A DNA stretch of 64,000 bases, taken from the NCBI GenBank assembly GCA_030390025.1, contig CM059434.1:131564001-131628000 (forward strand). Reading direction: 5' to 3'. A model generated the notes under the pieces. The model ran no database searches. It had not been told where the DNA came from and saw only the letters and a list, made by a program, of their open reading frames with translations. The stretch is from Squalus acanthias. Taxonomy: Eukaryota. Positions within the stretch are counted from its first letter, which is position 1. The number at the start of each line of letters is the position of its first letter. Positions 3,487-56,100 of this stretch are shown here, one piece after another. The position numbers and the translations under genes are program-made.

Positions 3487-3575
3487 AAACCAGATGGGTT
3501 TTTACGACAATCCGATAGTTTCATGGTCACCATTACTGATGCTAGCTTTTTATTCCAGATTTATTTAATTAACCA
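3487..3575 (-). mobile_element. Fragment of the tRNA-headed SINE/LINE 5' body
   Basis: Reverse complement matches 36165-36250 (ttaattaaat..tctggaataaaaagctag..tcagtaatgg..aacccatctgg). Confidence 0.65.
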
Positions 3576-17455: not shown

Positions 17456-20400
17456 AGATACATAGATACATAGATACATAGAAGATAGGAGCAGGAATAG
17501 GCCATCCGGACCTTCGAGCCTGCTCCGCCATTTAATGAGATCATGGCTGATCCTCCAATTCAGTATCCCGTCCCCGCCTTCTCTCCGTAACCCTTAACCC
17601 CTTTTGCCTGTAGAAATATATCTAATTCCCTCTTAAATATATTTAATGAGCTGGCGTACACTGCCCTCTGTGGCAATGAGTTCCACAGGTTCACCACCCT
17701 CTGAGTGAAGAAATTCCCCCTCATTTCTGTCCTAAATGGTTTAGCCCTTATCCTTAAATTATGTCCTCTAGTTCTGTTCTCACCCGCCAAGGGAAACATT
17801 CCTTCTGCATCTAGTCTGTCTAGACCTGTCAGAATTTTATACACTTCTATGAGGTCCCCTCTCAATCTTCTAAACTCCAGTGTGTACATCCCTAAACTAC
17901 ATAGTCTCTCCTCATAGGTCAATCCCGCCATTCCTGGTATCAGCCTGGTGAATCGCCGCTGCACCCCCTCCATGGCAAGAACATCTTTCCTCAGATGAGG
18001 CGACCAAAACTGTACACAGTACTCGAGGTGTGGTCTCACCAGTGCCCTGTACAGCTGCAGCAAGGTATCCCTGTTCCTGTATTCCAACCCTTTTGCTATG
18101 AAGGCCAGCATACCGTTTGCCTTCTTGACCGCCTGTTGCACCTGCATGCTCGCCTTCAGTGACTGGTGTACAAGAACACCCAGGTCTCTCTGTACTTCCC
18201 CCTCTCCCAATTTATTGCCATTTAAATAATAATTTGCCCTCCCGTTCCTGCACCCAAGGTGGATAACTTCGCACTTGTCCACATTATAGTGCATCTGCCA
18301 TTTATCCGCCCAATCACCCAGTCTGTCCAAATCGCTCTGGAGCTTCCTGGTCTCCTCCTCTGAGCCCACCCCCCCTCCTAGTTTAGTGTCGTCTGCAAAT
18401 TTGGAAATGCTGCATCCGACTCCCTGATCCAGGTCATTAATGTAAATTGTGAACAGCTGGGGACCCAGGACAGATCCCTGTGGTACCCCACTTGTTACTG
18501 CCTGCCATTCAGAAAATGAGCCGTTTATTCCAACTCTCTGTTTTCTATCTGACAGCCAGTTCTCTATCCACGTCAATACTTTCCCCTTTATCCCATGAGC
18601 TTCAATTTTCCATGCTAATCTTTTATGTGGGACCTTATCGAAGGCCTTTTGGAAGTCCAGGTACACCACATCTACTGGCTCTCCCCCATCTATTTTACCA
18701 GTTACTCCCTCAAAAAATTCCAATAGATTAGTCAAGCACGATTTACCCTTTGTAAATCCATGTTGACTCTGTCCTATCCTGTCCCCATTTGCTAAGTGCT
18801 CCGCTATTTCATCCTTAATGATGGACTCCAGCATTTTGCCCACAACTGATGTAAGGCTTACAGGTCTGTAATTACCTGCTTTTTCCCTACCCCCCTTTTT
18901 GAATAGTGGGGTAACGTTAGCTACCCTCCAATCCATGGGCACTGTTCCCGAGTCTAATGAATTCTGAAAAATCATACTGAGTGCATCCGCTATCTCTAGG
19001 GCCACCTCCTTCAGTACCCTAGGATGCATGTTATCAGGCCCTGGGGATTTGTCCGCCTTCAATCCCTTTAGCTTCCTTAACACCATATCCTTAGAGATAT
19101 TGATTTGTGTCAGTTCCTCCTTTGCCAATGTCCCTATTTTTCCCGATATCCCAGGGAGGTTTTTGTGTCTTCCTTCGTAAAGACTGACCCAAAGTATGCA
19201 TTTAGTTGGTCTGCCATTTCCTTATTTCCCGTTATATATTCCCCCGTATCTGACTGCAATGGACCAACTTTGGTTTTCACCAGTCTTTTCCTCTTGATAT
19301 ACTTATAAAAGCTTTTGGAGTTAGTTTTTATATTTTCCGCCAGCTTGCTTTCGTAAACTATTTTGCCCCTCTTGATTAAGCCCTTTGTCCTCCTTTGCTC
19401 TATCTTAAACTGTTCCCAATCTTCCGCTCTTGCGCTTTTTTGGGCTATTTTATACGCCCTATCTTTGGATTTTATGCTGTCTCTAATTTCCCCTGTTATC
19501 CACGGTTGAGTCACCTTTTTAGATTTCCTTTTATGCCAGATTGGTATAAACAATTTTTGCAATTTTGTCATTCTATCTTTAAATGCTTGCCATTGTTTAT
19601 CTACCTCCAGTCCTCCCAGGAACGTTGTCCAATCAGACCTACTCCGTTCCCGTCTAATGGCATCATAATTCCCCTTGTTTAAATTCAGGACCTTAGTCTC
19701 TGAGTCAATTTCTTCGCTCTCCATTTCGAGTGAGAAATCGATCATGTTATGATCGCTCTGACCCAAGGGTCCCCGTACAACAAGATTACTAATTAGTCCC
19801 TTCTCATTGCACAGTACCCAGTCCAATATAGCCTGTTCCCGAGTTGGTTCCTCGACATATTGATCCAGATAACCATCCCTTAAACACTCAAGGAATTCCT
19901 CCTCCTCATTATTTTTACTGATTAGGCTAGTCCAATCTATATGTAAGTTAAAGTCACCTATGATGACAGCTGTGATCTTATTGCACGCTTCTCTAATTTC
20001 CCTCGTGATGCCCTCCCCAACCTCTATTTTACTATTTGGAGGCCTATATACCACTCCTATTAATGTTTTTCGCCCCTCGCTATTTCTTAGCTCCACCCAT
20101 ATAGATTCTGTATTAACTGAGTTAATATCCTTCCTTTCAATTGCATTTATCCCCTCTTTTACCAGCAATGCTACCCCTCCTCCCTTTCTTTTTTGTCGAT
20201 CCTTCCTAAATACTGAATACCCCTGTATGTTAAGCTCCCAGCCCTGCTCACCCTGCAACCATGTTTCCGTAATGCCAATTAGATCATAATTATTAACCTC
20301 TATTTCCACAGCTAATTCATCTACCTTGTTCCTGATGCTTCTCGCATTAAGGTATAAAACCCTCAGGCTTTTTTTATGCTCACATTTTTTATGAATTAGT

Positions 20401-20736
20401 TTGGCCCTTTGTTTTTTGTTCCTCACCCTTTTACCATTTATTTCTGTCTGCCTTTCACTTTCCTCTATTTCACTACATAGGTTTCTAGCCCCCTGCCATA
20501 CTAGTTTAAATGCTCCCGAACTGCTTTATCAAAAATTACCCCGAGAACATCAGTTCCATCTTTGCACAGGTGTAGACCGTCCCTTTTGTATAGGTCACAC
20601 CTACCACAAAACTGGTTCCAATGCCTCAAAAATTTAAAACCCTCCCTCTTACACCACTGCTCAAGCCACGTATTTAGCCTAACTATCCTGTTCTCTGTAC
20701 TCTTACTAGCACGTGGCACTGGTAGTAATCCAGAGA
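17456..20736 (-). mobile_element. 5'-truncated young CR1 LINE with near-intact ORF2
   Basis: ORF1 C-terminus at 20501-20736 (DGLHL), EN ORF 19134-20426, RT ORF 17560-19128 ([15 protein letters not shown]) and a (gatacata)3 tail at 17456. Confidence 0.95.
17560..20426 (-). pseudogene. CR1 ORF2 (AP endonuclease + reverse transcriptase) with a single frameshift
   Basis: The 430-aa and 522-aa ORFs join into about 955 aa if one base is added to the homopolymer at 19160-19164. Confidence 0.88.
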
Positions 20737-22547: not shown

Positions 22548-22850
22548 AAAAAGGAAAAAGACTTGCATTTATATAGCGCCTTTCACGATCACTGGATGTC
22601 CCAAAGAAAGTACATTTTGAAATGCAGTCACTCTTGTAATGTAGGAAACGTGGCAGCCAACTTGCAAGCTCCCACAAACAGATAATCTGTTTTAATGATG
22701 TTGATTGAGGGATTAATATTGGCCAGGACACCGGGGATTACTCCCCTGCTCTTCTTCGAAATAGTGCCATAGGATCTTTTATGTCCACCTGAGAGAGCAG
22801 ACGGTTCCTCGGTTTAACGTTTCATCCGAAAGATGGCACCTCCAACAGTG
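22548..22850 (-). mobile_element. DeuSINE (SacSINE1/AmnSINE1-like)
   Basis: Deu-domain aaagatcctatggcactatttcgaagaagagcaggggag and tail gcgctatataaatgcaagtc on the minus strand. Confidence 0.85.
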
Positions 22851-24347
22851 ACTCCAGCCAAGCCGTTCCAGTACAGCTACAACACTGCCATCTATCTGAC
22901 AATGTGGAAAACTGCCCAGGTGTGTCCTGTCCACAAAAAGCAGGACAAATCCAATCTGGCCAATTATCGCCCCATCAGTCCACACTCAATCATCAGCAAA
23001 GTGATGGAAGGTGTCATCGACACTGCTATCAAGTGGCACTTACCAATAATCTGCTCACTAATGCCCAGTTTGGGTTCCGCCAAGACCATACGGCTCCTGA
23101 CATCATTACAGCCTTGGTCTAAACATGGACAAAGGAACTGAATTCCAGAGGTGAGAGTGACTGCCCTTGACATCAAGGAAGCATTTGACCAAGTGTGGCA
23201 TCAAGGAGCCCTAGTAAAACTGAAGTCAATGGGAATCGGAGGGGGGGGGGGGGGGGGGGCAGTTGGGGAAACTCTCCACTGGCTGGAGTCATACCTAGCA
23301 CAAAGGAAGATGGTTGTGGTGGTTGGAGGTCAATCATCACAGCCCCAGGATATCGCTGCAGGAGTTGCTCAAGGCAGTGTCCTCGGCCCAACCATCTTCA
23401 GCTGCTTCATCAATGACCTTCCCTCCAACTTAAGGTCAGAAATGGGGATGTTCGCTGATAACTGCACAGTGTTCTGTGCCATTCACAACTCCTCAGATAA
23501 TGAAGCAGTCCATACCCGCATGCAACAAGACCTGGACGACGTTCAGGCTGGGCTGATAAGTGGCAGGTAACATTCGCGCCACAGAAGTGCCAGGTAATGA
23601 CTATCTCCAACAAGCAAGAGTCTAACCACCGCCCCTTGACACTCAACGGCATTACCATCGCCAAATCCCCCACCATCAACATCCTGGGGGGGTCACCATT
23701 GACCAGAAACTTAACTGGACCAGCCACATAAATACTGTGGCAACAAGAGCAGGTCAGAGGCTAGGTATTCATCGGTGAGTGTCTCACCTCCTGACTCCCC
23801 AAAGCCTTTCCACCATCTACAAGGCACAAGTAAGGAGTGTGATGGAACACTCGCCACTTGCCTGGATGAGTGCAGCTCCAACAACACTCAAGAAGCTCGA
23901 CACCATCCAGGACAAAGCAGCCCACTTGATCGGCACCCCATCTACCACCTTAAACATCCACTCCCTCCACCACCGGCGTACCGTGGCTGCAGTGTGTACC
24001 ATCTACAAGATGCACTGCAGCAACTCGCCAAGGCTTCTTCGGCAGCACCTCCCAAAACCGCGACGTTTTCCACCTAGAAGGAGAAGGGCAGCAGGTGCAT
24101 GGGAACACCACCACCTGCAAGTCACACACCATCCTGACTTAGAAGTATATTGCCGTTCCTTCATCGTCGCTGGGTCAAAATCCTTGAACTCCCTGCCTAA
24201 CAGCGCTGTTGGGAGTACCTTAACCACATGGTGTACAACGGTTCAAGATGGCGGCTCACCACCACCGTCTCCGGGGCAATTAGGGGTGGGCAATAAATGC
24301 TGGCCTTGCCAGCGACGCCCACATCCCATGAACGAATCAAAAAAAAA
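22850..24347 (+). mobile_element. LINE RT and 3' end (CR1/L2/Jockey group; same family as 36066-37569)
   Basis: NYRPIS, ALDIKEAFDQVWH, GVAQGSVLGP, MFADN and [11 protein letters not shown] motifs; tail gggcaataaatgctggccttgccagcgacgcccacatccc followed by an A run. Confidence 0.88.
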
Positions 24348-24892
24348 CCTGTGCTTTAAGCACCCCCCCACCTCACTGTGTCTTGCTAAGTATTCTCCAT
24401 CACATCACTTCTCACACCCACTCAACTTTCAGCAGCATCCAGCCTAATTTTCTATGCACCTCATCACCTCCCGATTCATCCATCCACCGTTGACACACAC
24501 CCCAATCATTATGCAATGTGATGCAAGTGTCTCATAGTCACCCTCACTGATTGCACTACATCTATTGGGTGAATACCTCACCTTCACTCACTCACAGGTC
24601 TGCTTTTTTCGCCCCTTGTAGGTGAAGAGAGCGCAAAACGCAAGGGAGAGGGGCAAGACTGGAGGTGAGCCGCCACAAATATTCCAGCTCACAGATGCAG
24701 AGGAGGAGCCTTGGAGATAAGTGGCACATCTGCGTTCCCCTCTGTTGGAGATGGAGAAACAGGGAGGGACAGATAGCTGGTGACAGAATTACAAATATCT
24801 CTGGCACACATATATGCTGACTTCATTTCATCAATGACTGAACTATGAGAAGACTGAGTATGGTGATTGTTAAGTTTGTGACATATCTGTTA

Positions 24893-25190
24893 TTTTTTTA
24901 TTCGTTCATGGGATGTAGGCATTGCTGGCAAGGCCAGCATTTATTGCACATCCCTAATTGCTTCTGGAACCGCTGCAGTCCGTGTGGTGAAGGTACTCCC
25001 ATAGTGCTATTAGGGAGGGAGTTCCAGGATTTTGACCCAGTGATGATGAAGTAACGGCGATATATTTCCAAGTCAGGAGGGTGTGAGACTTGGAGGGGAA
25101 CTTGGAGGTGGTGGCGTTCCCATGCACCTGCTGCCCTTGTCCTTCTAGGTGGTAGAGGTCATGGGTTTAGGAGGTGCTGTCGAAGAAGCT
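24893..25190 (-). mobile_element. LINE 3' end (same family as 22850-24347)
   Basis: Reverse complement of the 24040-24347 and 54430-54750 tails. Confidence 0.85.
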
Positions 25191-26054: not shown

Positions 26055-26500
26055 GGCAGTCTGCCATCTGAGCCAGAAGGTTGTGGGTTGAAGCGCTGCT
26101 CCACGGACTTGGGCGCATTATCTAGGCTGACATTTCAGGGCAGTACTGAAGAAAGGTGGTGTTGTCTTTCAGATGACGTTAAACTGAGGGCCCATCTGTC
26201 CACTGAGTTGAATCATAGAATCATGGATGAAAAAGATCCCATGGCACTATTTGAAGAAAAGCAGGGGAGTTCTCCCAGTGTCCTGGCCAACATTAATCCC
26301 ACCATTAACCTCACTAAAAACAGATTATCTGGCCATTTATCACAATCCTGTTTGTGAGACCTTGATGTGCGCAAATTGGCTGCTGCATTTCCTTCCATTA
26401 CAAGAATGACTACAATTCAGAAGTACATTCATTGGCAATGAATCGCTTTGGGACAGCCTGAGATTGTGAAAGACGCTATACACATGCAAGCTTTTTATTT
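26055..26500 (+). mobile_element. DeuSINE
   Basis: Partial tRNA-like head (gagccagaaggttgtgggttgaag), Deu-domain and gacgctatacacatgcaag tail. Confidence 0.8.
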
Positions 26501-31165: not shown

Positions 31166-32399
31166 GCTGCCTCTGCTTTATCTCCCTGTCAGCACGAGGG
31201 GGACAGCAAGGAAAGCCCCCATGACTGGGAGCAAGTGGTGTAGTCGAAGGCCTTGCAGTTGCAGCCAATGCCTTCTCAGCATCCAGCAGCACTCCCTGTG
31301 CACTTTAACGACGTTATAAATGTCTTCCAGCAAGCCAGTATGGATATAAACTCTGCGAGAGCCAGTACAAGAGAAATAATCAACTTACTTGCAAGTTGGA
31401 TGTATTCCTTTAAATAGAGCTGGTGGCGGGGGGGGGGGAAGTCCCTCGTGCAGCTGAATACGTTCAGCTGTGCGTGTTTAGGAGAGGGCGTTGTTTGGAA
31501 CGGCGACGTCCAAAATGGCAGGTCGTGCGTCAAATCAGCTCTGCCATTTTGGACGTCACACTCTGCCTACTCTACATACTGCCGGCGTGCACACATCCCG
31601 CCCATGCTATCGCCCTCACCAAGATGGCAACCAGCACGGGGTGAGGCGGCCGCCAATTTTTTCTGAAAATGGCTTTAACTGTTGGCGCTAAGGTACCAAA
31701 TTTCGCAGCCCTGGGGTTTTACATACACATATCTTTGAAGGTGGCAGGACAAGTTGATCAAGCTGTTAAAAAAGCATATGGGATAGATAGAGGCACAGAG
31801 TAAAAAAGCAAGGAAGTGATAGTAAACCTTTATAAATCACTGGTTAGACCTCAGCTAGAGTATTGTGTACAATTCTGGGCACCACACTTTAGAAAGGATG
31901 TCAAGGTTGGAAAGAGTACAGAGCAGATTTACCAGAATGGTACCAGGGATGAGAAAATTCAGTTATGTGGAGAGACTAGAGAAGCTGGGATTGTTCTCTT
32001 TAGAGCAAGGAAGGTTAAAGGGAGATTTGATAGAGGTGTTCAAAATTATGAGGGGTTTTGATAGAGTAGATAGGGAGAAACTGTTTCCAGTGGCAGGAGG
32101 GTTGGTAACCAGAGGACACAGATTTAAGATAATTGGGAAAAAAGCCAAGGGAGAGATGAGGAGAATTTTTTTTAATCAGCGAGTTATGTTGATCTGGAAT
32201 GTATTGCCTGAAAGGGTGGTGGAAGCAGATTCAACAGTAATTTTCAAAAGGGAAGTGGATATATACTTAAAAAAGGAAAAATTTGCAGGGTTACGGGGAA
32301 AGCAGGGGAGTGGGACTAATTGGATAGTTCTTTCAAAGAGCTAGCACAGGCACAATGGGCAGAATGTCCTCCTTATGTGCTGTGCGATTCTATGATTCA

Positions 32400-32680
32400 T
32401 AACCTCAGGACGTCCCAAAGTGCTTTACAGCCGATGAAGTACTTCTGAAGTTTAGTCACTGTTGTAATGTAGGAAACACATCAGCCAATTTGTGCACTGC
32501 AAGGTCCCACAAACAGCAATGAGACAATGACCAGATAATGCTTTTAGGTGTTGGTTGAGGGATAAATATTGGCCAGGACATCGGGAGAACCTGCTCTTCT
32601 TTGAAATATTGCCATGGGATCTTTTGCGTTCAGCTGGCAGGGTGATGGGACCTCGGTTTAACGTTTCATCCAAATGATGG
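32400..32680 (-). mobile_element. DeuSINE
   Basis: Reverse-complement Deu-domain and tail. Confidence 0.82.
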
Positions 32681-33611: not shown

Positions 33612-34499
33612 CTGAAAAGAGTAAAGATAGTTTAAGGTTTTGAGCGTAAATTCTTCTTCAGAACCTGATATTTGTCTGAAGCATTAATCAGTCTTTTCTC
33701 TTAAATGCTGATGGGTATGTGCGTATTTCCAGTATTTTTTTTATTATAAATATATGAATGTATGGATATGAGAACGGAAAAGAAAAATTCAAAGGACCTA
33801 GATTCTATGTTTCTTTCTATGAAATAAGTTACACAGCTGCAGGATTACTTAAAAACAAAGAAATAAAAAGAGAAAAACAACTGTGACAAAAATAAAATGA
33901 TAAAACTTGGGATCTTCATGATTGGTGCGGCTTAGCAGGCGGTATATTCAGATGCAACAAAAAAGCTACTGCAGTAGGTAGTTAAATAACATTAAATTCA
34001 AGGCTCTTAATAAGAGTAAAGGGTGCAGTAGATTACAATTTAAGAAAAATGTAACGCTTACCCATGTAACACCAATTACAGGTACCTAATTGTAGTAATG
34101 GTAAGAAAGGTCAGAAACTGAACTTCAATGCAGTCAGGCCCAGTATTTCCACGGTTTTATTTTTATTTATAGTAATGATAAGTCCATCTTTAAAATTGAT
34201 AACTGAATTGTTTCTAGATTGAATTACAATAGTATCTCTCAATTTCAGTTGCAATTCTTATTGAACAGAGATGATCAAACTGGCAGCATTAAAGTTCTAC
34301 TTACAATCTCCCTCAACCACATGGGGTGCATGATGTGACCAACTGAAGACCTTACTTTTTTTGAATAATAGGAGAAGATTCCCTCTAAATATCCAAGTAT
34401 ATACAGTAATATCAACTCCATTTCCCCTATTTTGACATTTAATTGCCGAGCCTTTTTGCCATCTTTGACTGACTAACTTATCTTCCACTTTAGGAATAA

Positions 34500-35245
34500 T
34501 CTGGCTCCCCTCAGTGGCCATGCAGAGTACTGAGCCGCACCACAGGGGACGGTAGCATAGTGGTAATGTCACTGGGCAAGTAATCCAGAGGCCTGGACTA
34601 ATGATCCAGAGACGTGAGTTCAAATCCCACCATGGCAGCTGGGGAATTTAAATTCAATTAAATAAAAAAAGCTAATATCAGTAATGTTAACCACGAAATT
34701 ATTGGATTGTTGTAAAAACCCTTCTGGTTCACTAATGTCCTTTAGGGAAGGAAATCTGCCGTCCTTACCTGGTCTGGCCAATATGTGACTCCAGACCCAC
34801 AGCAATGTGGTTGACTCTTAACTGCCCTCTGCAGCGGTTCAAGAAGGCGGCTCACCAGCACCTTCTCGAGGGCAATTAGTGATGGGCAATAAATGGTGGC
34901 CTTGCCAGCGACGCCCACATCCCATAAACGAATAAAAAAGTCATGAAGATCGCAAGTTCTATTTTTCATTTGTGCTGAGTTTTCTGATTTCAATCAAGGT
35001 TACAGGGTGGACATTACAATTGGACTTCGTATCTCCCAAGCTAGAGAGGGGGGAAAAATCAACCAGGGTTCATGCTCATAATCATTGATATTGAAACCAA
35101 TAGACTGCATAAAAACAGGATCACACATGGTTTTGCTGACCTCCATAATTGAACAGCTGAAGATTATCTGGACTCACACATAAAGGGTGGCTACTTTGGT
35201 GAGGTACTGGAGAGTGGTTGTATCCATGAAGCTGTACCCAAACAT
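34500..35245 (+). mobile_element. AmnSINE2-like SINE remnant interrupted by a younger SINE
   Basis: Head gtactgagcc lies before 34545; the body resumes after 34940 (tgtgctgagt..ggggaaaaatcaaccagggttc..gaggtactggag..tgtaccc). Confidence 0.55.
34545..34939 (+). mobile_element. tRNA-derived SINE with LINE-derived 3' tail
   Basis: A box TAGCATAGTGG at 34553-34563, B box GTTCAAATCC at 34618-34627; the tail matches the LINE ends at 24240-24347 and 54640-54750. Confidence 0.88.
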
Positions 35246-35265
35246 AAGTCATCACCCAATGTGTG

Positions 35266-35620
35266 TCAGCTGTGGCTCAGTGGGTAGCACACTCGCCTCT
35301 GAGTCAGAAGGTTGTGGGTTCAAGTCCCGCTCCAGGGAGATGCCGTATTTCAGACGAGACGTTAAACCGAGGCCCCGTCTGCTCTCTCAGGTAGACGTAA
35401 AAGATCCCATGGCACTATTTCGAAGAAGAGCAGGGGAGTTATCCCCAGTGTCCTGGCCAATATTTATCCCTCAATCAACATCAAACAAATTGTCTGGTCA
35501 TTATCACATTGCTGTCGCGTTTCCCACATTACAACAGTGACTACACTCCAAAAAAGTACTTCATTGGCTGTAAAGCACTTTAAGACGTCCGGTGGTCCGG
35601 TGGAAATGCAAGTCTTTCTT
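35266..35620 (+). mobile_element. DeuSINE with intact tRNA-like head
   Basis: A box tggctcagtgg, B box gttcaagtcc, Deu-domain and aatgcaagtctttcttt tail. Confidence 0.88.
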
Positions 35621-36065
35621 TCAAGGACAAGATGTGAGAAAATTGGAACAACAAAAAACTTGAAACCAAAATTTCTGTCTGCTAATTCTAGCAAGAAAAG
35701 TAGTTGAGCATAAAAAGTGACATTCAGGCCTTTTGAAACTGCTAACGACACACATCAGTAATATCTTGAGAAACTCATTTTTTACAGCTTTAACACATGC
35801 CACATTGCCATAATAATCTGTCCTGTTTAATCAACGTCCTTCAGAATGGTTACCCACAGTGGAAGACACGTATAGGAAGAGTAATTTTGCACCATACCAA
35901 GGTTTGACATCATAATATGTTTTAATTACTGAAAAATGCTTCCTCTGTATTAAACCTCTTATTATACTGGTTTAAACTATCCTTATGGCTTTTCGCTGCC
36001 CGAAAGAATACAATAGGGTCAGTAATCTAGGAATCTTGAGGCAATGCTACCATTGGTAGTTACGC

Positions 36066-37569
36066 CAGCAGTGTGGTTATGTTACTGGACTAGTAATCCA
36101 GAGGCCTGGATTAATGATCCGGAGACATGAGATCATGTCATGAATGTTCAATAAAAATTTTAATTCAGTTAATTAAATCAATCTGGAATAAAAAGCTAGT
36201 ATCAGTAATGGCGACCATAAACCTACCGGATTGTGGTAATAACCCATCTGGTTTACTAATGTCCTTTAGGGAAGGAAATCTGCCGTCCTTACCCGGTCTG
36301 GCCTATATGTGACTCCAGAACCACAGCAATGTGGTTCACTCTTAACTGCCCTCAGAAATGGCCTAGCAAGCCACTCAGTTGTACCAAACCGCTACAAAGA
36401 AGTATACTAAGAATAAAATTGGACGGACCACTCGGCATCGACCTAGGCACCAGATACGACAAAGGCACACCCAGCCCAGTCAACCCTGCAAAGTCCTCCT
36501 CACTAACATCTGGGGACATGTGCCAAAATTGGGAGAGCTGTCCCACAGACTAGTCAAGCAACATCCTGGCACAGTCATACTCACAGAATCGTACATTTCG
36601 GCCAAGATCACAGACTCCTCCATCACCATCCCTGGGTATGTCCAGACCCACCAGAGGTGGCGGCACAGTGGTATACATTCGGGAGGGGGTGGTCCTGGGA
36701 GTCCTCAACATTGACTCCGGACCCCATGAAATCTCATGGCATCAGGTCAAACATGGACAAGGAAACCTCCTGCTGATTACCACATACTGCCCTCCTTCAG
36801 CTGATGAATCAGTACTCCTCCATGTTGAACACCACTTGAAAGAAGCACTGAGAGTAGCAAGGGCACAGAACGTACTCTGGGTGGGGGACTTCAATATCCA
36901 TCACCAAGAGTGGCTCAGTACTACCACTACTGACCTAGCTGGCCGAGTCCTGAAGGACATAGCTGCGAGACTGAACCTCTGGCAGGTGGTGAGGAAACCA
37001 ACACCAGCGAAAAACCTCTGCGGCGAGTGTCTCACCTCCTGACTCCCCAAAGCCTTTCCACCTTCTACAAGGCACAAGTCAGGAGTGTGATGGAATACTC
37101 TCCACTTGCCTACATAAGTGTAGCTTCAACAACACTCAGGAAGCTATCAGGACAAAAAGCTCACTTGATTGGCACCCCATGCACCATTTTAAGCATCCAC
37201 TCCCTCCACCACCGGTGCACTGTGGCTGCAGTGTGTGCCATCTACACGATGCACTGCAGCAACTCACCGAGGCTTCTTCAACAACACCTCCCAAACCCGC
37301 AACCTCGACCACCTAGAAGAACAAGGGCAGCAGGCACATGGGTGCATCATCACCTCCAAGTTCCGCTCCAAGTCACACACCATCCTGACTTGGAAATATA
37401 TCGCCGTTCTTTCGTCGCTGGGTCATAATCCTAACAGTACCTTCACCACGTGGACTGCAGCGGTTCAAGGCGGCGGCTCACCAACACCTTCTCAAGGGCA
37501 ATTACAGATGGGCAATAAATGCGGGCCTTGCTAGCGTCGCCCACATTCCATGAATGAATTAAAAAAAAA
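36066..37569 (+). mobile_element. Internally deleted LINE with SINE-like (tRNA-derived) 5' end, endonuclease coding region and 3' tail
   Basis: 36066-36355 matches the SINE at 34545-34830. EN motifs follow (TNIWG, ILTESY, GGGTVVY, TYCPP, VGDFN), then a deletion near 37018 and the ORF C-terminus and tail. Confidence 0.85.
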
Positions 37570-37594
37570 TTCAGTTGATGCTCCACCAAGGATA

Positions 37595-38445
37595 TCATAG
37601 AATCATAGAAATTTATAGCCCATCGTGTCTGTGCTGGCCGAAAAAGAGCTATCCTGACATTCCCACTTTCCAGCTCTTGGTCCTTAGCGCTGTAGGTTAC
37701 GCCACTTCAACTGCATATCCAAGTACTTTTTAAATGCGTTGACAGTTTCTGCCTCTACCACCCTTTCAGGCAGTGTGTTCCAGACCCCCACCACCCTCTG
37801 GGTGGAAATAATTCTCTTCAACTTCCCTCTAATCCTTCTACCATTTACTTTAAATCTATGCCCCCTGGTTATTCACCTCTCTGCTAAGAGAAATAGGTCC
37901 TTCCTATTCACTCTATTTAGGCCACTCATAATTTTATACACCTCAATTAAATCTCCCCTCAGCCTCCTCTGCTCCAAAGAAAACAACCCCAGCCTATTCA
38001 ATCTTTCCTCATAGGTAAAATCCTCCAGTCCTGGCAACATCCTTGTAAATCTCCTCTGTACCCTCTTTAGTGCAAGCACATCTTTCCTGTAATGTGGTGA
38101 CCAGGACTGTATGCAGTACTCTAGCTGTGGCCTAACTAGTGTTTTATACGGTTCCAGCATAACCTCTCTGCTCTTATATTCTATAGCCTCGGCTAATAAA
38201 GGCAAGTATCCAGTATGCCATACCTACCTGTCCTGATGCATTCAGGGATCTGTGGACATGCAGTCCAAGGTCCCTCTACACTCCTCAGTACACTACCATT
38301 TATTGTGTATTCCCTTGCCTTGTTAGCCCTCCCCAAATGCATTACCTCACACTTCTCCAGCTTGAATTCCATTTGCCACTTTTCTGCCCACCTGACCAGT
38401 CCATTGATATCTTCCTGCAGTCTACAACTTTCTTCCTCATTAACC
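37595..38445 (-). mobile_element. CR1 3' fragment
   Basis: ORFs 37873-38205 and 38193-38471; atcatagaatcatagaa tail. Confidence 0.88.
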
Positions 38446-41122: not shown

Positions 41123-44100
41123 CTGCAGAAAGAAACAGTGTAAAATAAGGAAACATTAGTTAGTAAGCTTGAGGTTTTAGGAGGTTAGCATAATTGTTAG
41201 ATCTGTAATATTGCTGGGAGTCCAGTAACTGAATAAACTCTCACAAACACCACTTAATTTTCATCACTGGCATTTCTATCTGCAAAACACTAACCTTCAC
41301 TTGATAGAAAGCAAAGGTTTTGAGAGTTCTTGTACTGTCCTACAATCTAGTACCTCCTAATTCACTTCTGAAGCAAATGAGAGCAGCACATTTGGTTGTA
41401 AAAAGATATGGAAGTGTAGGGAAATGTATTTTCAGAGCAGCTAAACTCAGAGGTGCTTCTGAATTCAAGTTCCAAACACATTGTGGAGTCCTGAAGGAAT
41501 TCCTTAAAGTCCCATGGAAGGTTCCTCAATTGGGAGTGCACACAGAGATCCACTCCCAGTCCTATGTGAATAATGTTCCGTAAGCCTGCAGGTGAGCAAT
41601 CAGACACAGGCTAACTCAGCTCCTATCTTAACTTCCTCCCTTGTCTCCCCTCAGCACCTTCTCATGCAGGCTATACAGACATTGGGAACTTGACAAGTAG
41701 GAAATTGAAAGCATGAACATCTGTTAATGCTGATTGGGAAGAGGGTTGAGTGCAAAAGATAAAATTCAACAAACTTTCACTTAAAAAAACAATTTACTAC
41801 CAATACTTTTATAGGTCAGGTGTAATGGGAGCATGATGGTATAAGGCCTACCAACTTCTCAGGGTAACGAGGGATGGGCAATAAATGTGGCCTGGCCAGT
41901 GTCACCCACATCCCGAGAACCGAAAAAAAAGCAAATCTATGATTTCCCACATTACTGACTTCCCAATCCTAGGCACGAGCAGATAGCAGATATATGCACA
42001 AATTAGGGAGGGGCAAAATTGTAAGTATGTTACTTATACACTTCTGAACTACGGTTTTAAATGCAGAGGCCTGGGATCAGCTTCCCTGCCCTTTTCTGGT
42101 GATAATGGAGGGAAGTACAGTGTTACACCTCGGAGATTTGTGTTGGGTTTGCAGCTGGCGCTGTGCAATGCCCACATTGCTGAGGAGAGTGCAAGGACAA
42201 ATATCCAAATAGCATTGGAGTTTGAAACTAGCAGGGAGGTGGCACAAGGCCTCTCTGTTTCATTCTCCTCTACCATTCACCCCAAAATGGGGTTTGGTGG
42301 GGGGGGGGCTAAGCAGGATGAAAATCTAGGCTGAAATTTCTTGTTCAAGGAAACAAGGCATCAAGTCACTCACTTGATAAATCTAAGGACAGAATTTGTT
42401 GCTGTTATACATTGGGATCCTTACGGGGACAAGTGTTCAGGCCAGTTGTGATCTTGACAAGCACTGATGCAATGCATCTGGTGAATCTGGGCTGCAGGTC
42501 TAATTGGAGCATTCAGCATAACTAACAGCAGATGTTCTAAGTTAGAGAGGCACTGCTCCTCGAATATGGGAATTCCCAGGGAAAAATCCATTGTGGCAGC
42601 AGGAGTCAAGAAAAAAATTAATCTTTTGCAGTGAGCACAAGAAAATAAAATGGGAGCAAGCCCAAATCATAACAATTCTTTGAGCAGGTCTCAACCAGTG
42701 TCCACAATAACTCAGTGAGAGTTTCACATGATCAATTGCTCATTTAGATAAGCCCTCTATTAAAGAGAATCTAGGACACTGAAATTTGTGGTAGCACACC
42801 GTGTACATGCAAGTGACAATTAGGAAAACACACATTGTGCAAACATATGAATTTGAAGGCAAAAGCAAAAAATGATTATGTAACAAATCGGTCTCAGAAG
42901 GGAACAGAAAACCTACGAGGGAACTGGCTATTTAGATCTAGTACTGTGCAATGAGACAGGGTTAATTAATAACCTTGCAGTAAAAGAGCCTCTGGGGAGC
43001 AGTGATCATAATATGATAAAAATTTTATGTTGAGTTTGAGAGTGATTTAGATAAGTCCGAAACTAGGGTCCTAAACCTGAACAAAGCAAACAACGTAGGT
43101 ATGAGAGGCGAGTTGGCTAAGGTAGGTTGGGAAACTAGACCAAAAGATATGACAGTAGAAAAGCAGTGGCAAATATATAAAGAAATAATTCATAATTCGC
43201 AACGAATATACATTCCCCTAAGGAATAAAAACACCACGAGAAAAATGGTCCAACCGTGGCAAACAAGAGAAATTAAAGATAGTATTAGATTAAAGGAAGA
43301 GGCTTATAATCTTGCCAAAAAGAATAGTAAGCCTGAGGATTGGAAGGATTTTAGAATTCAGCAAAGGAGAACCAAGAAATTGATAAAGAAAGGGGAAATT
43401 GAATGAGAGTGAACTAGCGAGAGACATAAAAACAGATTGTAAAAGCTTCTAAAGGTATGTAAAAAGGAAAAGATTAGCAAAAATAAACATGAGTCACTTA
43501 CAGGCTGAGATAGGAGAAATTATAATGGGGAATAAGGAAATGGCAAAGAAATTAAACAAATACCTGGGCTGCGATTTCGCCGACCGAGGCGAATCCGGGG
43601 CGGTGTTGCGGTCCCAACCTGCTGCAGCCCGCAATCTCCAAGTTATTTTACGTTAATAGGGCTTGTTAAACCCGCCCTGCGAGGTTCCCGGCCAATTAAA
43701 AGGAAGCAGGTCTGATGATGTCATTTGATGACACGTCATCAGCTGGTTTCCTTAAAGGGGCCATGTCCAAACTGATCTTGACAGTTCTGCTGTCAATGTT
43801 CTACAGCATTGAGGTGCTGCAAACACTGACAAGCACTGCACAAAGGTGCACGGCTGCACCCAGGCTCTCCCATGACTTCCTCCATATGCTTATGTAGGGA
43901 GTCACAGCACGCAGGGAGGTTCTCTTCCCTTCCAATGGGCGGAAGAGACCTCCCCAGGAGATCAACGCAGCCTGGTTGTACATTGCAGAGAAGGGCACAA
44001 GCAGGGATGTCGTCATGAGGACCAGGCTGCAGTAGCGCAAGCCTTTCAATCATCTCAGTAGATCACGAAACGATACTGCCAAGCCACACTCAACCTCATC

Positions 44101-47100: not shown

Positions 47101-50100
47101 ATTTGAATTATGAATAGTAATATAAAAGTGCGCATGAGTACTTGGAGGGTTAATGCTATTTTTGGTACTAGCTCACCTGTTTTGTTTAAGGATTGTATCT
47201 TTAACTTGGTTTGTCTGAAGTGCGGGCTATATGGAGGCTCAATTAGATGTCCGGTTTGAGGGTATGAGATTGCTGTGAGCAAGTGATCACTTCCTGCAGC
47301 CTTCATCATCTTCTGGATCTGAAATGGAAAAGTAACCAAATTTACACCTTCAAGTATTTCTGGTCAATACCGCAAATCTCATTTACGAATTAATTGATTC
47401 GTGACAAAATGGAGCATAATATGCACTTACCGCAATGGCTGATTCAGGTGCAGGCCAGTTCTGATCATCCTCCCCAGAAATAAGCATCAAGGGGCATCTG
47501 ATTTTATCAACCTGCCAATCAAACATAAGAGTTTATGCAGTGGAGAGTTAACAACAGTTCATGAGTATGAAGTCCTGTCACTCAAATATCCGGCAGGCAT
47601 GAGAAAGTAGAAATATCCTTTGCACAAATGAGAAATATACAAATATCTCTTTGCCATTTGAGATCTTGGTAACTACCTCAGCTCAGAACTTTCTCTACAT
47701 TTGTCTCCCTATAAAGGCATCTTTTGAATTCAAACATTTGTTTTGCAGCAGGAGTTTATAACATGAGTTTGTGCAACAAACGCCATTAAAATTTAGAATT
47801 CCAATAGACAAAATTCACTTGCGAGTTGAGGAACAGGGAGAGAGTGCAGATAAACACGTGGCTGCAGGGATGGTGTAGGGGGGAGGGTTTCAGTTATGTG
47901 GATAATTGGAGCACATTCTGGGGAAGGTGGGACCTGTACAAACAGGACGGTTTGCACCTGAACCAGAGGGGCACCAATATCCTGGGAGGGAAATTTGCTA
48001 CGGCTCTTCGGGGGGGTTTAAACTAATTTGTCAGGGGGATGGGAAAAAGGGCTGTAGTCCACGAGCCAGTGGTGAGTGTAGGGAGGTACTGAGGAGGGTA
48101 TCAAGGTCGCAGGAATGTACCGGCAGACAGGAAGATGGCTTGAAGTGTGTCTACTTCAATGCAAGGAGCATCCGGAATAAGGTAGGAGAACTTGGAGCGT
48201 GGATTGGTACTTGGGACTACGATGTGGTGGCCATTACGGAGACATGGTTAGAACAGGGACAGGAATGGCTGTTGGAAGTTCCGGGGTATAGATGTTTCAG
48301 TAAGAGTAGGGAAGTTGGTAAGAAAGGTGGAGGAGTAGCATTGTTAATCAAGGATAGTTTAACAGCGGCAGAAAGGCAGTTCGAGGGGGATCTGCCGTCT
48401 GAGGTAATATGGGCTGAAGTTAGAAACAGGAAAGGAGCGGTCACGTTGTTAGGAGTTTTCTACAGGCCCCCAAATAGTAATAAAGATGTGGAGGAAGAAA
48501 TTGCAAAGCAGATTATGAATAGGTGTGGAGGTCACAGAGTAGTTGTCATGGGTGACTTCAACTTTCCAAATATTGATTGGAACCTTTATAGGTCAAACAG
48601 TTCGGATGGGATAGTTTTTGCACAGTGTGTGCAGGAGGGTTTCCTGACACAATATGTGGATAGGCCGACAAGAGGTGGGGCCACGTTGGATTTGGTACTG
48701 TGTAATGAACTGGGCCAAGTGTTTGATTTGTATGTGGGAGAGCACTTTGGAGATAGTGACCACAATTCGGTAACTTTCACTATTGCAATGGAGAGGGATA
48801 GGGCCATACGGCAGGGCAGGGTTTATAATTGGGGGAGGGGTAATTATGATGCGATTAGGCAAGAATTAGGGAGTATAAGATGGGAACAGAAACTATCAGG
48901 GAAAGGCACAAACGAAAAGTGGAGCTTTTTCATGGAGCAATTACTGCGTGTCCTTGATAGGTATGTCCCTGTCAGGCAGGGAGGAAATGGCCGAGTGAGA
49001 GAACCATGGTTCACAAAAGAGGTTGAATGTCTAGTCAAGAGGAAAAAGGAAGCGTATGTAAGGATGAGAAAACAAGGTTCAGTTGGGTCGATTGAGGGGT
49101 ACAAGGTAGCAAGGAATGAGCTAAAAAAAGAGCTTAGGAGAGCTAGGAGGGGGCATGAGAAGTCCTTGACGGGTCGGATCAAGAAAAACCCCAAGGCTTT
49201 TTACTCTTATGTGAGAAATAAAAGAATGACCAGGGTGAGGGTAGGGCCGGTCAAGGACAGTAGTGGGAACTTGTGCATGGAGTCAGAAGAGATAGGAGAG
49301 GTGATGAATGAATACTTTTCGTCAGTGTTCACCGAGGAGAGGGGCCATGTTCTTGAGGATGAGAGTGTGATAAAGGTGGATAGGCTGGAGGTGGTAGATG
49401 TTCTGAGGGAAGATGTTTTAGCAATTTTGAAGAACCTGAGGGTCGATAAGTCCCCTGGGCCAGATGGGATATATCCTAGGATTCTTTGGGAGGCAAGGGA
49501 GGAGATTGCAGAGCCTCTGGCTTTGATCTTTGGGTCCTCACTGTCCACGGGGATGGTGCCAGAGGACTGGAGAGTGGCGAATGTTGTTCCTCTCTTCAAG
49601 AAAGGAAATAGGAATGACCCTGGTAATTATAGGCCGGTTAGTCTTACTTCGGTGGTTGGTAAGATAATGGAAAAGGTCCTGAGGGATAGGATTTATGACC
49701 ATTTGGAAAGGGGCAACTTAATCAGGGATAGTCAACACGGATTCATGAAGGGTAAGTCTTGCCTAACAAATTTGATTGAATTCTTTGAGGAGGTAACTAA
49801 GTGTGTAGATGAAGGTAGAGCAGTTGATGTCGTATACATGGATTTTAGTAAGGCGTTTGATAAGGTTCCCCATGGTCGTCTCATGAAGAAAGTAAGGAGC
49901 TGTGGGATAGAGGGAAATTTGGCCGATTGGATAAGTAACTGGCTATCTCATAGAAGTCATGATGCGGAGATGCCGGTGTTGGACTGGGGTGGACAAAATT
50001 GAGAGGTCGCTGTATCTAATTTACTTCACCTGAGGAAGGAGCAAATCAATAGCTCCGAAAGCTTGTGATTTCAAATAAAACTGTTGGACTATAACCTGGT

Positions 50101-53100
50101 GTTGTGCGACCTCTCAATTTTATCTCATAGAAGGCAGAGGGTGGTGGTGGATGGAACATTTTCGGACTGGAGACCAGTTACCAGCGGTGTGCCACAGGGG
50201 TCGGTGCTGGGTCCTTTGCTGTTTGTGATTTTTATCAATGACTTGGAGGAGGGGACTGAAGGGTGGATCAGTAAATTTGCTGATGACACCAAGATTGGTG
50301 GAGCAGTGGATGAGGTGGAGGGCAGTTGTAGGCTGCAAAGAGCCATTGATAGGATGCAGAGCTGGGCCGAAAAATGGCAGATGGAATTTAACCCTGATAA
50401 GTGCGAGGTGATTCATTTTGGTAGGGCAAATTTGAATAAGGATTACAGGGTCAACGGCAGGGTTCTGAGGAACGTGGAGGAGCAGAGGGATCTGGGGGTT
50501 CATATCCACAGATCTCTAAAGGTTGCCACTCAAGTGGATAGAGCAGTAAAGAAGGCCTATGGTGTGTTGGCGTTTATTAACAGAGGGTTTGAGTTTAAGA
50601 ACCGTGAGGTTATGCTGCAACTGTACAGGACCTTGGTGAGACCACATTTGGAATATTGTGTGCAGTTCTGGTCACCTCACTATAGGAAGGACGTGGAAGC
50701 ATTGGAAAGAGTGCAAAGGAGATTTACCAGGATGGTTTGGGGGGGAGGTCTTATGAGGAAAGATTGAGGGAGTTGGGGCTTTTCTCTTTAGAGCAGAGGA
50801 GGATGAGAGGCGACTTAATAGAGGTTTATAAGATGATGAGGGGGATAGATAGAGTGGATGTTCAGAGACTATTTCCTCGGGTAGAGGCAGCTGTTACAAG
50901 GGGGCATAACTATAAGGTGCATGGGGGGAGATATAGAAGGGATGTCCGAGGTAGATTCTTTACTCAGAGAGTGGTTGGTGTGTGGAATGGACTGCCTGCT
51001 GTGATAGTGGAGTCGGACACTTTAGGAACTTTCAAGCGGTTATTGGATAAGCACATGGAGCACACCAGAGTGATAGGGAGTGTGATAGCTTGATCTTGGT
51101 CTCGGACAATGCTCGGCACAACATCGAGGGCCGAAGGGCCTGTACTGTGCTGTACTGTTCTATGTTCTAGTTATATAGGGCCTTGGTGAGACCACACCTG
51201 GAGTACTGTGTACAATTTTGGTCTCCTTACCTAAGGAAGGATATACTTGCCATAGAGGGAGTGCAATGAAGGTTCACGAGATTGATTCCTGGGATGGCGG
51301 GACTGTCGTATGAGAAGAGATTGAGTAAACTAGGCCTGTATTCTCTTGAATTCAGAAGAATGAGCGGGGATCTCATTGAAGCACACAAAATTATTAGAGG
51401 GCTTGATGGATGGATGCTGGGAGAATGTTTCCCTTGGCTGGGGAGTCTAGAACCAGGGGCCACAACCTCAAGATAAAGGGTAGGCCATTCAGGACTGGGA
51501 TGAGAAGAAATTTCTTCACACAGAGGGTGGTGAATCTTTGGAATTCTCTACCCCAGAGGGCTGTGGAGGCTCAGTCATTGGGTATATTCAAAACAGAAGT
51601 CGATAGATTTCTGACTAGTATGGGCATCACAGATATGGCGATAGGGCCGGTGAATGGAGTTGAGGCAGAAGATCAACCATGATCTCATTGAATGTTGGAG
51701 CAGGCTCGATGGGCCGAATGGCCTACTCCTGCTCCTATTTCTTATGTTCTGCCGTATATGGATTAACATAGTCGAGGTCTAACGATTAACCCCAAATCAC
51801 AGTATATTGGCCACTGGCGAATAGTAGGATGCTTATTACGATGGATCTTGCTGTCCTGATTCAGAGCATAAGAACATCTACATTCAATTATTTTTTTCCA
51901 AAATACAAATTTGTAGTTTACCAGTAATACAGCAGTTTTAAGTTGGCTGCAGTAACTGCATGCTGAGAAAGCATTACCAAAGGCAATCTACAAAGGCCAT
52001 CTGCAACTGCCAAAAACAAATGACTTATCTTCGTTCATGTTGATCAAGGGAGATCCCAAGTAAGCCCTGGTAACAATAATAGTAATTAATGTAGATCAAT
52101 GGCTTACCAGACTCTGAGCTCTGCTTTGTCCTGAAGATGTGTGAATTGCCTGAGTGAAGGGATACCTTTACTCTGAAGGGCTACCCTGCTAACTTTGACA
52201 CCTGAGTTGATTGAAATCATTGCAAGAAATGTTTCACAGTGGGTTGGCTTTGATTCATTATAAATGATAGTCGTCTATCTATCTTTGTACTAGCCTAAAT
52301 CAATGAAAAGAAATGTGAATGGGACCAGAGTCAGTTCTGTTATATGGGCCATGGGCTAATAAAGCAGTGAATTTCTCACACAAAAGTTTTTCATCAAAGA
52401 CATGTAGTTCTAGTTACTAAAGTTACTGCAAAGAACTGTTAAGGCGTCTTGGCTATTGGTTTTAAACTACTGGTGAAAAATTCATTATGTAACTGGACAC
52501 ATATTAGAAGGCTCAAACATTAAATTCCAGTTTCATACAAATTTCAATTTGAAATTTTGAGCTAGTTTGCTGATTGATCCATTTTGATCCTGTGCTCTTT
52601 GTCTCATTAAAATATAATTGGTTGTTTTCAGCCTAGGTCATACTAACATTATTTGATTGAATTTTTTGAGGAGGTAAGAAGGAGGGTAGATGAGGGTAGT
52701 GTGATTGATGTAGTGTATATGGACTTTAGCAAGGCTTTTGATAAGGTTCCACATGGCAGACTGGTCACGAAGTTAAAAGCCCATGGGATCCAGGGCAAAG
52801 TGTCAAGTTGGATTCAAAACTGGCTCGGAGACAGGAAGCAGAGGGTACTGGTTGATGGGCGCTTTTGTGACTGGAAGGCTGTTTCCAGTGGGATTCCGCA
52901 GGGCTCAGTACTAGGTCGCTTGCTTTTTGTGGTATATATCAATGATCTAGACTTGAATATTGGGGGTATGATTAAGAAGTTTGCAGATGATACTAAAATC
53001 GGATGTGTGGTTGATACTAAAGAAGGACTGCAGGAAGATATCAATAAATTGGTCAAGTGGGCAGAACAGTGGCAAATGGAATTCAATCCGGAGAAGTGTA

Positions 53101-56100
53101 AGGTAATGCATTTGGGGAGGGCTAACAAGGAAAGGGAATACACATTAAATGGTAGGACACTGAGTAGTGTAGAGGAACAAAGGGACCTTGGAGTGCATTT
53201 TTACAGACCCCTGAAGGTAGCAGGCCAGGTAGGTAAGGTGGTTAAGAAGGCATCCGGAACGTTTGCCTTTATTAGCCGTGGCATAGAATACAAGAGCAGG
53301 GGGGTTATGCTTCAACTGTATAAAACACTAGTTAGGCCTCAGCTAGAGTACTACGTGCAGTTCTGGTCACATTACAGGAAAGATGTGACTGCACTAGAGA
53401 GGGTACAGAGGAGATTTACAAGGATGTTGCCGGGAGTAGAGAATCTTAGCTATGAGGAAAGACTGGATAGGCTGGGTCTGTTTTCCTTGGAACAGAGGAG
53501 GCTGAGGGGAGACCTTATTGAGGTGTATAAAATTATGAGGGGCATAGATAAAGTGGATAGAAAGGACCTATTTCCCTTAGCAGAGGGGTCAAAAACCAGG
53601 GGGCACAGATTTAAAATAATTGGTGGAAGGTTTAGAGGGGATTTGAGGGGAAATTTCTTCACCCAGAGGGTTGTGGGGGTCTGGAACTCACTGCCTGAAA
53701 GGGTAGTAGAGGCAGGATCCCTAACCACATTTAAAAAGTACTTGGATGTGCACTTGGGATGCTCTAACCTGCAAGGCTACGGACCAAGAGCTGGGAAGTG
53801 GGATTAGGCTGGATAGCTCTTTGTTGGCCGGCGCAGACACGATGGGCCGAAATGGCCTCCTTCCATGCTGTAACTTTCTATGATTCTATTTACCAGGAAT
53901 TATACGAATAAACCATACCATTTCCAGTGTACACAACAGAGATAAAAATGGGTTCACGTTTCATCCCAGGCAGGTTACACCCTAGATAGTGTTGATACAT
54001 GATTGCATTTCGGTTCAGAGAGCAGGAACTGCCTATAGAAGTGTTCCTTTGAAGTGAACAGGAGTTAAAAATGTGTTGGAAGATAGTTCAAATTGTAATA
54101 ACCAACACACTCTCACGGACCTCAGAAGGCAGAACATTTACCACACCGAGAGACCAGTTGTCCAGATTTATTTACAGTTTAAAATACACGGAAAGAGAAA
54201 GAGACACCATCTGCAAGGCACAAGTAAGGAGTGTGATGGAATAGTCTCCACTTGCCTGGATGAGTGCAGCTGCAACAACACTCAAGAAGCTCGACACCAT
54301 CCAGGACAAAGCAGCCCGTTGATTGGCACCCCATCCACCACATTACACATTCACTCCCTCCACCACCGGCGTACTGTGGCTGCAGTGTGTACCATCTACA
54401 AGATGCACTGCAGCAACTCGCCAAGGCTTCTTCGGCAGCACCTCCCAAACCCGCGACCTCTTCCACCTAGAAGGACAAGGGCAGTAGGTGCATGGGAACA
54501 CCACCACCTCCAAGTTCCCCTCCAAGTCACACACCATTTTGACTTAGAAGTATATCGCCGATCCTTCATCGTCGCTGGGTCAAAATCCTGGAACTCCCTA
54601 CCTAACAGCACTGTGGGAGTACCTTCACCACACGGACTGCAGCGGTTCAAGAAGGCAGCTCACCACCACCTTCTCAAGGGCAACTAGGGATGGGCAATAA
54701 ATGCTGGCCTTGCCAGCGACGCCCAGATCCCATAAGCAAATAAAAAAAAAATACTAACAGTATACTAATCAAATTTACATTACTTACAAACTAGATTAAC
54801 TGCTTAAAACAAAGACAACCGTATAATTCTTATAGCTCCTCTCAGCAAGTTCCTGGAAATAATCTATTTAAACTACTTCCTCATAGTAAGTAGCTGAGGA
54901 GTGGCCTTAAAAAGACAGGGTAGGTTAAACATATGGGCCATAAAATTCCTCAGGTCGCAATCCTGATGATTATACTGGGATCACACCCAACCGTGTGCTC
55001 CAACACTGACTCCATTGCAGTTTGTGGTGTCAGTGGAAGGACACCTTATTAGCTTGGGGTAGGCAGGCGCAAGTTCCATTATGGGTCAAATTAATATTTT
55101 TCATTGCAGCTTGCTCTGCAATTTCTATTGAACTAAACATCTTTCATTATTCCTATACTTAGCAGAACCTTTTACCTGCACTATCAACTTTGGATCATCT
55201 GAAAACGGCAAGGGAATATTTCTCCATATCATAGCACCATCTTCTGTAAACTTAATTTTATCCGATTGTCTGGGTGGGGAGGCCAAAAAAAGGAAAGAAA
55301 AGTCAATGACTAGACAATGAAACCCAACAGTAACACAGATATTTTTGCCGTATTGTGTTAAATCCGTTAACACTCCCAGATTTTAAAATTAGTGTACCAG
55401 TGACTTACATAACCTACCAATTTCACAACAGCGGAGGAGACATTTGTGAGCTTATTTATCAAGACTGCTCAATTTTTTTGCAGAAGGCAACCACTTCCCC
55501 CTGACCTTCAATGGCACCACCCTTACATTATACTCATTGCAACCCAAAGGAGGAGTATTTGGCTGTGCCCATATGAAGAACAGCAGACATACATAACATG
55601 GAAACACTAGGAAATTAGATTAACTTACTTGTAAATGTCAGTAAAAAAATCTAATTTTCCTTCCCGGATAAGGTTATAATGACTTCCACTGATGCAGATT
55701 AAGCACTTGGGCTAAGGGGAAAGCACATCAAATGCAGTAGATAAACAATCAAGATGAGCAAAAAGTGTTTTTATTCATGATAAAAATGAAACTATGGTCA
55801 AGAAGCTGAGTAACAGATTAATATGACCAACGTTCAGTAAATAAATCCATTGCAAAGGCCGAAATACCAGCCATACATGACCACAGCAAAATGTACGATA
55901 ATGTACGCCACGTCAGAATTAGCAAATGCTCTAGTTTAGTTGGGATGCTTACTCTGAGATTTTCCTATCAGAAGTTTAATTTTTTCTGCATAAAAGCAAA
56001 CTTACCCAATAAATCCCTATTGCAAAACACATGGTATGCCATGGGTTCTCAAGCTAGTTTGAAGGCTACAAGTTAATAAATACACTGATGGAAAATTTAT

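Follow-up and report, generated by a model that had tools for sequence, protein, structure and literature searches.

A 64,000-nt stretch of Squalus acanthias DNA, referred to here as the window, carries side by side a short, SINE-like element (34545-34939) and a longer element with an endonuclease reading frame (36058-37569), which share both of their ends. The original prediction took them for a LINE with a tRNA-like Pol III head and its non-autonomous deletion derivative. The locus raises the question whether such a head belongs to the LINE, which polymerase would read it and how the short element arose.

The two elements and their family

The short element (395 nt, plus strand) is a bipartite, internally deleted copy with a SINE-like layout, in which a head and 5' UTR are followed by the LINE's final 111 nt. 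Its tRNA-like head (34545-34640, plus strand) contains the expected A box (34553-34563) and B box (34616-34627) and two tandem arms, the first of which is damaged in this copy. A scan with box consensus sequences found only two A+B pairs in the 64-kb window, the second of them in an unrelated SINE. The Rfam tRNA model matched the head weakly (22.6 bits, E 0.18, under the gathering score of 29) and ARAGORN detected no tRNA in it. The element is non-coding, shorter than 600 nt and ends in a tail shared with a LINE, as do tRNA-derived SINEs.

The colinearity proposed between 36066-36355 and the 5' part of the short element was borne out by alignment: 34554-34829 and 36067-36353 were 78.8% identical over 292 columns (pairwise E 3e-72), and the last 163 nt of this alignment were 89% identical. 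The 3' part (34829-34939) was 87.4% identical to 37455-37565, the tail of the neighbouring LINE copy, and 91.9% identical to 54637-54747. The two halves meet, as predicted, at a CTG microhomology (34829-34831, plus strand) matching 36353-36355 and 37455-37457; the 36058 copy itself reads CAG at 36353-36355, and other contigs have T at 36354. No target-site duplication longer than 5 nt was found flanking either element.

The longer element (plus strand) is a decayed LINE copy of 1.5 kb, internally deleted and frameshifted, running from head to poly(A). The loss of the B box from its head (36058-36165, plus strand) had been recognized, whereas the original prediction mentioned neither the alteration of the A box nor the absence of the RT. 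The arm CTGGA-CTAGTAA-TCCAG is intact at 36085-36101, and under standard tRNA numbering its loop CTAGTAA contains the anticodon AGT (Thr). The remaining 5' UTR (36166-36489, plus strand) consists of an A-rich stretch, a conserved body, an ATG-GCC-TAG mini-frame at 36358 and an Arg-rich leader. The AP-type endonuclease domain (36490-37003, plus strand; PF14529, E 2.3e-09) has one frameshift near 36630. Its motif KVLLTNIWG begins near 36490, about 135 nt past the shared stretch, and, in line with the prediction, no ORF1 lies between. The C-terminal part of the ORF and a short 3' UTR (37018-37569, plus strand) end with AATAAA at 37514 and an A9 tail (37561-37569). Aligned with a 962-aa relative, the copy reaches residue 204 at 37003 and resumes with residue 790 at 37018, indicating a deletion of about 1.75 kb at approximately 37017 that removed the whole RT. 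This deletion is specific to the copy, since loose contig ends before 37017 (336, 683 and 667 contigs in three runs) continue as the copy at 22853. With the deletion added back, the length of this copy comes to about 3.3 kb.

Family pieces had also been noticed near 22850-24347, 24893-25190 and 54205-54750, and alignment recovered all three: a 5'-truncated copy with RT, C-terminal part and tail (22853-24352, plus strand; RVT_1, E 1e-15), the only copy in the window with an RT, a 3' fragment (24890-25189, minus strand) and a 5'-truncated 3' fragment (54205-54752, plus strand). Additional pieces are a fragment of the 5' UTR body (3487-3573, minus strand; 90.8% identical to 36168-36254) and a diverged tail fragment (41850-41936, plus strand; about 81% identical to other tails). 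Within the RT of this 22853 copy, an insertion of about 20 G (23228-23260) drew Gly-rich false matches.

Judged by sequence, each of the two elements is a copy of elasmobranch Zenon, a LINE of the CR1 group and a very common, high-copy retrotransposon of sharks and rays. Sixteen-mers of the window matched three and five rows of the supplement of Stuart et al. 2026 (PMC13343379), and all rows displayed were Zenon. The first 117 nt of the 34545 head, compared by eye, equalled the SquAca_Zenon-1 consensus at 112 of 117 positions (five differences, 96% identity). According to the accessible text of that paper, ORF1 is missing throughout the Zenons, whose tails are poly(A), so its absence is ordinary here; the elasmobranch members are described there as absent from a repeat repository. 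In the part seen of a whale shark preprint (10.1101/443036) a CR1-Zenon-like LINE is mentioned once. At the level of the family no difference was found between the window copies and the Zenons as presented in PMC13343379, which have the same 5' sequence, a single EN-RT ORF, no ORF1, poly(A) and a length of about 3.3 kb. In the window the endonuclease begins about 430 nt from the 5' end with no long frame upstream, and A-tails occur at 34934 and 37561 and also terminate the copies at 23, 25 and 54 kb. PF14529 and RVT_1 occur in separate window copies that share the C-terminal part, no single window copy having both, and both domains map on the single-ORF relatives P0030 and P0123.

A quick RT tree (107 rows and 130 columns, with no named Zenon reference; rows were removed beforehand if they were shorter than 230 aa, had fewer than 105 aligned residues or contained poly-G) placed the family RT with two shark proteins (support 98), apart from the CR1 RTs of the window. 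Word-index protein searches gave four and two matches, mostly shark gene models carrying pieces of the Zenon element. Among the annotated shark models, P0001, P0002, P0005, P0006 and P0009 contain in-frame pieces of the Zenon ORF, by exonisation or mis-annotation. A 23-nt pattern from the body had no match in viral or metagenome contigs. Membership in Vingi or Ingi was considered and dropped when Zenon rows matched instead; neither the RT clade nor the 5' conserved domain of RTE, Ingi and Vingi was found in these elements. Four of five motifs were absent from the part seen of the supplement of Kojima 2018, and the match of a 9-mer lies in RTE 5' UTRs with different flanks. None of the five short motifs matched the hagfish SINE supplements, an insensitive test. 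Self-comparison gave no match between the Zenon elements and the Deu-type SINE at 35260-35620 that would indicate a Deu, Meta or UCON3 central domain.

That SINE (plus strand) represents a second tRNA-headed family that has no relation to the Zenon head. Its A box lies at 35273 and its B box at 35316, and its middle part, by eye, matches the Deu domain of AmnSINE1; the family is also present at 22555-22843, 26231-26496, 32395-32680, 58697-58938 and 63152-63362. Several canonical CR1-type LINE families, which served as controls, have many copies in the window (17467-20468, minus strand; 48131-51045 and 52643-53888, plus strand; and others), one copy having a 553-aa open stretch across RT and C-terminus. 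Two tandem arrays (7659-8426 and 8784-9760; 12 x 65 nt and 20 x 49 nt, 96% matches) lie just upstream of a CR1-like ORF region and are possibly repeated 5' subunits of the CR1 group.

The tRNA-like head as the 5' end of Zenon

The junction of head and endonuclease, which the original prediction expected to be shared by the family, recurs outside this locus. All seven elasmobranch Zenon consensi in Supplementary Table 2 of PMC13343379 (SquAca_Zenon-1 to -3, CarCar, ScyCan, RhiTyp and HypSab; 2.9-3.3 kb; four shark species and one ray) begin with the tRNA-like head, when compared by eye over the first 400 letters of each row, and none of the three hagfish and coelacanth consensi given there does. 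In the same comparison the B box reads GGGTTCGAATCCC in three species and GAGTTCAAATCC in all three SquAca consensi, and that of the ray lacks one base. Both boxes are kept across the four shark species, and the arms between them vary. Full-length members as described in this source lack ORF1, so that the conventional 5' UTR followed by ORF1, which would have spoken against the predicted structure, was not encountered.

Public contigs from four runs of three organisms gave the same picture, 76,503, 5,347, 142,820 and 124,521 contigs aligning to 36000-37650. Among the 32 listed pieces out of 350,513, six bridged position 36355 with at least 31 nt on each side. Four of the 32 listed pieces, with 33-53 differences from the 36058 copy, had at least 31 nt on the head side and extended past the start of the endonuclease. 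These bridges include contigs from two other organisms, both sharks. Loose ends before 36073 (706, 944 and 878 contigs in three runs) led to the beginning of the head and, beyond it, into AT-rich flanks that are unrelated. On this evidence the head is the 5' end of the Zenon family and not a local accident.

Distant relatives, which share 21-46% identity with the query protein and include elements other than Zenons, gave no parallel: an A+B box pair upstream of the ORF was found in none of the 55 for which a long ORF and upstream DNA were available, and ARAGORN detected no tRNA in 150 relative loci. The loci L081-L149 comprise dozens of intact animal-type LINE ORFs in bacterial MAG contigs, mostly of invertebrate symbionts, probably reflecting host contamination.

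The head bears two tandem anticodon-like arms, each with a 5-bp stem and a 7-nt loop (34577-34609; 36085-36121). In the consensi, examined by eye, the second arm varies among species yet stays paired, which may mean selection on RNA structure. Folding of the head, body and tail of the 34545 element revealed no significant structure (z -0.7 to +1.4 in 5 of 6 stretches), and the z of -3.1 obtained for the head at 36060 is due to the duplicated arm. An Rfam scan of 34300-37700 found no ribozyme at E values up to 10. In one run, X1, guessed to be RNA, head bins exceeded endonuclease bins more than 10-fold, as compared with about 1-3-fold in the other three runs, contig depth being unable to rank parts of the element.

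Internal deletions that keep both ends

The predicted pair of LINE and SINE stood only in part: the 34545 element does consist of the two ends of a Zenon LINE, but no SINE family with its CTG junction appeared. Public contigs aligned to 34730-34945 amounted to 132,856 pieces (four runs, three organisms). None of the 32 pieces listed crossed the junction with 31 nt on each side; 15 of them ended at 34825-34834 and 17 started at 34817-34846. Loose ends behind 34831 (263, 363, 18 and 473 contigs) continued as LINE 5' UTR and those before 34829 (217, 312, 33 and 321 contigs) as LINE ORF, the LINE being the continuation on both sides in all four runs. Nor was the CTG junction among the 15 best of 2946 joints. 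Six of these 15 connect the 5' part to the 3' end with differing breakpoints, and deletions keeping both ends have arisen repeatedly and independently. One such joint, of low depth, was seen as 36380-36383 to 37494-37495 in three of four runs and as 34831 to 34869 in all four.

Many copies of the 34545 structure were thus found neither among the listed pieces nor among the best joints. A small family with the CTG junction is possible, since rare forms are lost from contigs, which also break where repeats are nearly identical. The reading that fits best is a single rare or private product among many independent deletions. The suggestion that it derives from the adjacent LINE copy did not hold: the heads differ at diagnostic positions and its tail is nearer to the 54205 copy than to the neighbour, so by these comparisons it is not a daughter of the 36058 copy. 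With seven family pieces in 64 kb, the adjacency of the two needs no explanation.

The premise that tRNA SINEs share only the 3' tail with their partner LINE proved too strong, as both-ended derivatives are described in the available text of two papers (PMC6740152, PMC5786205). Persaeus SIDEs of Lepidoptera (Wang et al. 2019, PMC6740152) are short Zenon derivatives that keep both ends and formed repeatedly by internal deletion at microhomologies. Unlike the shark elements, Persaeus is presented there without tRNA homology or a Pol III promoter. In the shark, what the long and short forms share at the 5' end is a tRNA-like head, and the deletion product therefore has the anatomy of a SINE. Persaeus is credited in the same text with more than 100,000 copies, whereas the 34545 junction was crossed by none of the 32 listed pieces. 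The RTE- and Vingi-derived Bov-tA, AfroSINE and SINE2_Gav, as described in Kojima 2018 (PMC5786205), likewise combine a tRNA head with the 5' UTR and 3' end of a LINE; there, however, only the SINE carries the head, and the LINE is regarded as a Pol II unit, while the shark LINE, a member of the CR1 group, is itself headed. RTE-1_DAn and elements related to it (same source) are LINEs that hold tRNA-like sequence and differ in belonging to the RTE clade. Bivalve SINEs are reported to use CR1-Zenon tails (PMC11481361).

The word "tRNA" is absent from the main text by Stuart et al. (PMC13343379), and in the passages seen neither the head nor deletion derivatives come up. The literature searched contained no paper on a Zenon with a tRNA head or on an autonomous LINE driven by Pol III, and a full-text search with five sequence motifs returned none; subscription journals, Repbase and Dfam lay outside this scope and may hold an earlier note. 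The Zenon family, its loss of ORF1 and both-ended derivatives are known, and the tRNA-like head of the elasmobranch members appears, within the literature searched, to have gone unremarked.

Transcription, translation and origin

Pol III terminators in mammalian assays are TTTT or TVTTT, according to the accessible text of PMC8466645. In 2445 non-redundant nt of Zenon, about 820 nt of the ORF being absent from the window, 8 runs of three or more T were found against 17.0 expected (P 0.002), compared with 38 runs of three or more A against 40.9. At 0.47, the ratio for T is lower than in any of the 89 related ORFs, whose median is 1.07 and whose minimum is 0.70, and the CR1 copies of the same window have 1.38 times the expected number. 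Under a codon-aware null the T runs were 5 against 13.0 expected, with all three CR1 controls near 1. All five terminator-like motifs present in five Zenon copies are missing from other aligned copies. On the other side of the balance, the scarcity of such motifs reached only P 0.039, the antisense strand also being somewhat low (25 against 32.3, P 0.077). Runs of four or more T taken alone were not significantly scarce in a comparison of low power (2 against 3.5, P 0.32). Of 11 picked relatives, in the codon-aware test, two reached P <=0.01 for runs of three or more T and four P <0.05 for runs of four or more; in L081, a relative rich in GC, a single T4 occurs over 2.9 kb. The kept A and B boxes and the scarce T-runs lend moderate support to transcription of Zenon by Pol III.

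How the protein would be started is less straightforward. The endonuclease frame of the 36058 copy is open from the TAG at 36364 through the Arg-rich leader and has no in-frame ATG. This leader can be aligned to the N-terminal end of a relative of 983 aa, the methionine of which stands five residues ahead of the aligned region. By eye, six of the seven consensi (PMC13343379, first 400 letters) have ATG at the corresponding place, where the 36058 copy has ATA. That ATG is one base out of the endonuclease frame in the alignment of the 36058 copy and in the ray consensus; in SquAca_Zenon-2, a consensus that small deletions have made shorter, it falls in frame. Non-AUG initiation, a frameshift and an error in the consensi are candidate explanations.

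These observations can be joined in the following scheme. The tRNA(Thr)-like head would have been attached to the 5' UTR of a Zenon before the divergence of sharks and rays, probably through a template switch. The entire unit would then be read by Pol III, since its sense strand is nearly free of terminators, and the RNA would be translated without a normal cap or in-frame AUG. The protein would bind the 3' tail and copy the RNA by target-primed reverse transcription, which is established for LINEs. Internal deletions keeping both ends would yield ready-made SINEs. The account as a whole, a tRNA-headed Zenon read by Pol III and subject to both-end deletions with the 34545 element as a rare or private product, appears to us rather probable.

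The main competitor leaves the anatomy unchanged and assigns the full-length RNA to Pol II, with the head serving as a Pol II promoter or riding in host transcripts and Pol III reading at most short deleted copies. LINEs are stated to be Pol II transcripts in the parts seen of PMC10886601 and PMC5786205, a capped RNA would be easier to translate, and a translated 3.3-kb Pol III RNA had no precedent in the literature searched. AATAAA at 37514, 24292, 54696 and 34888, some 45 nt ahead of the A-tail, also fits Pol II. The signal also occurs in the 5' UTR (34661, 36187), however, and polyadenylation at AATAAA is possible for Pol III transcripts of SINEs (PMC8466645, accessible text), so that its position before the tail fits either polymerase. 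A low T content could account for part of the scarcity of T-runs, but runs of A are not depleted along with those of T, and the A and B boxes have been kept in four shark species, to judge from the consensi, where the intervening arms vary. We regard transcription by Pol II as unlikely, though well worth keeping in mind.

A different order of events is improbable to a higher degree: a both-ended non-autonomous Zenon would have gained the tRNA head, spread as a SINE family that included the 34545 element and passed the head to the LINE through the shared 5' UTR. Such a route has been proposed for headed bipartite SINEs of RTE and Vingi (PMC5786205, as far as its text was available), and the joint recurring in three or all four runs would suit it. 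Against it, the CTG junction left no trace among the listed pieces and best joints, the breakpoints are many and each of low depth, and the 34545 head is so close to the consensus of a full-length LINE (SquAca_Zenon-1) that it should be no older than that subfamily. Mere nesting, a SINE and a 5'-truncated LINE lying by chance side by side, might be thought of in a repeat-dense window where no target-site duplication marks the unit; it is refuted by the contig bridges and the seven published consensi, which have the same junction in copies from two other organisms' runs and in every consensus, and we give it virtually no weight.

The scheme with Pol III can be taken one step further. Zenon would be an autonomous, protein-coding LINE, the most abundant head-bearing one in sharks and rays, transcribed end to end by Pol III and translated without a cap or in-frame AUG, and each both-end deletion would be a newborn SINE, born in one step. 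This fuller reading is put forward tentatively, as a real possibility that we stop short of calling probable. If true, it would break, for a high-copy LINE, the textbook division that assigns LINEs to Pol II and SINEs to Pol III (PMC10886601, in the text available). It would also provide a natural 3-kb Pol III RNA that must be translated, and a one-step route from a LINE to a SINE.
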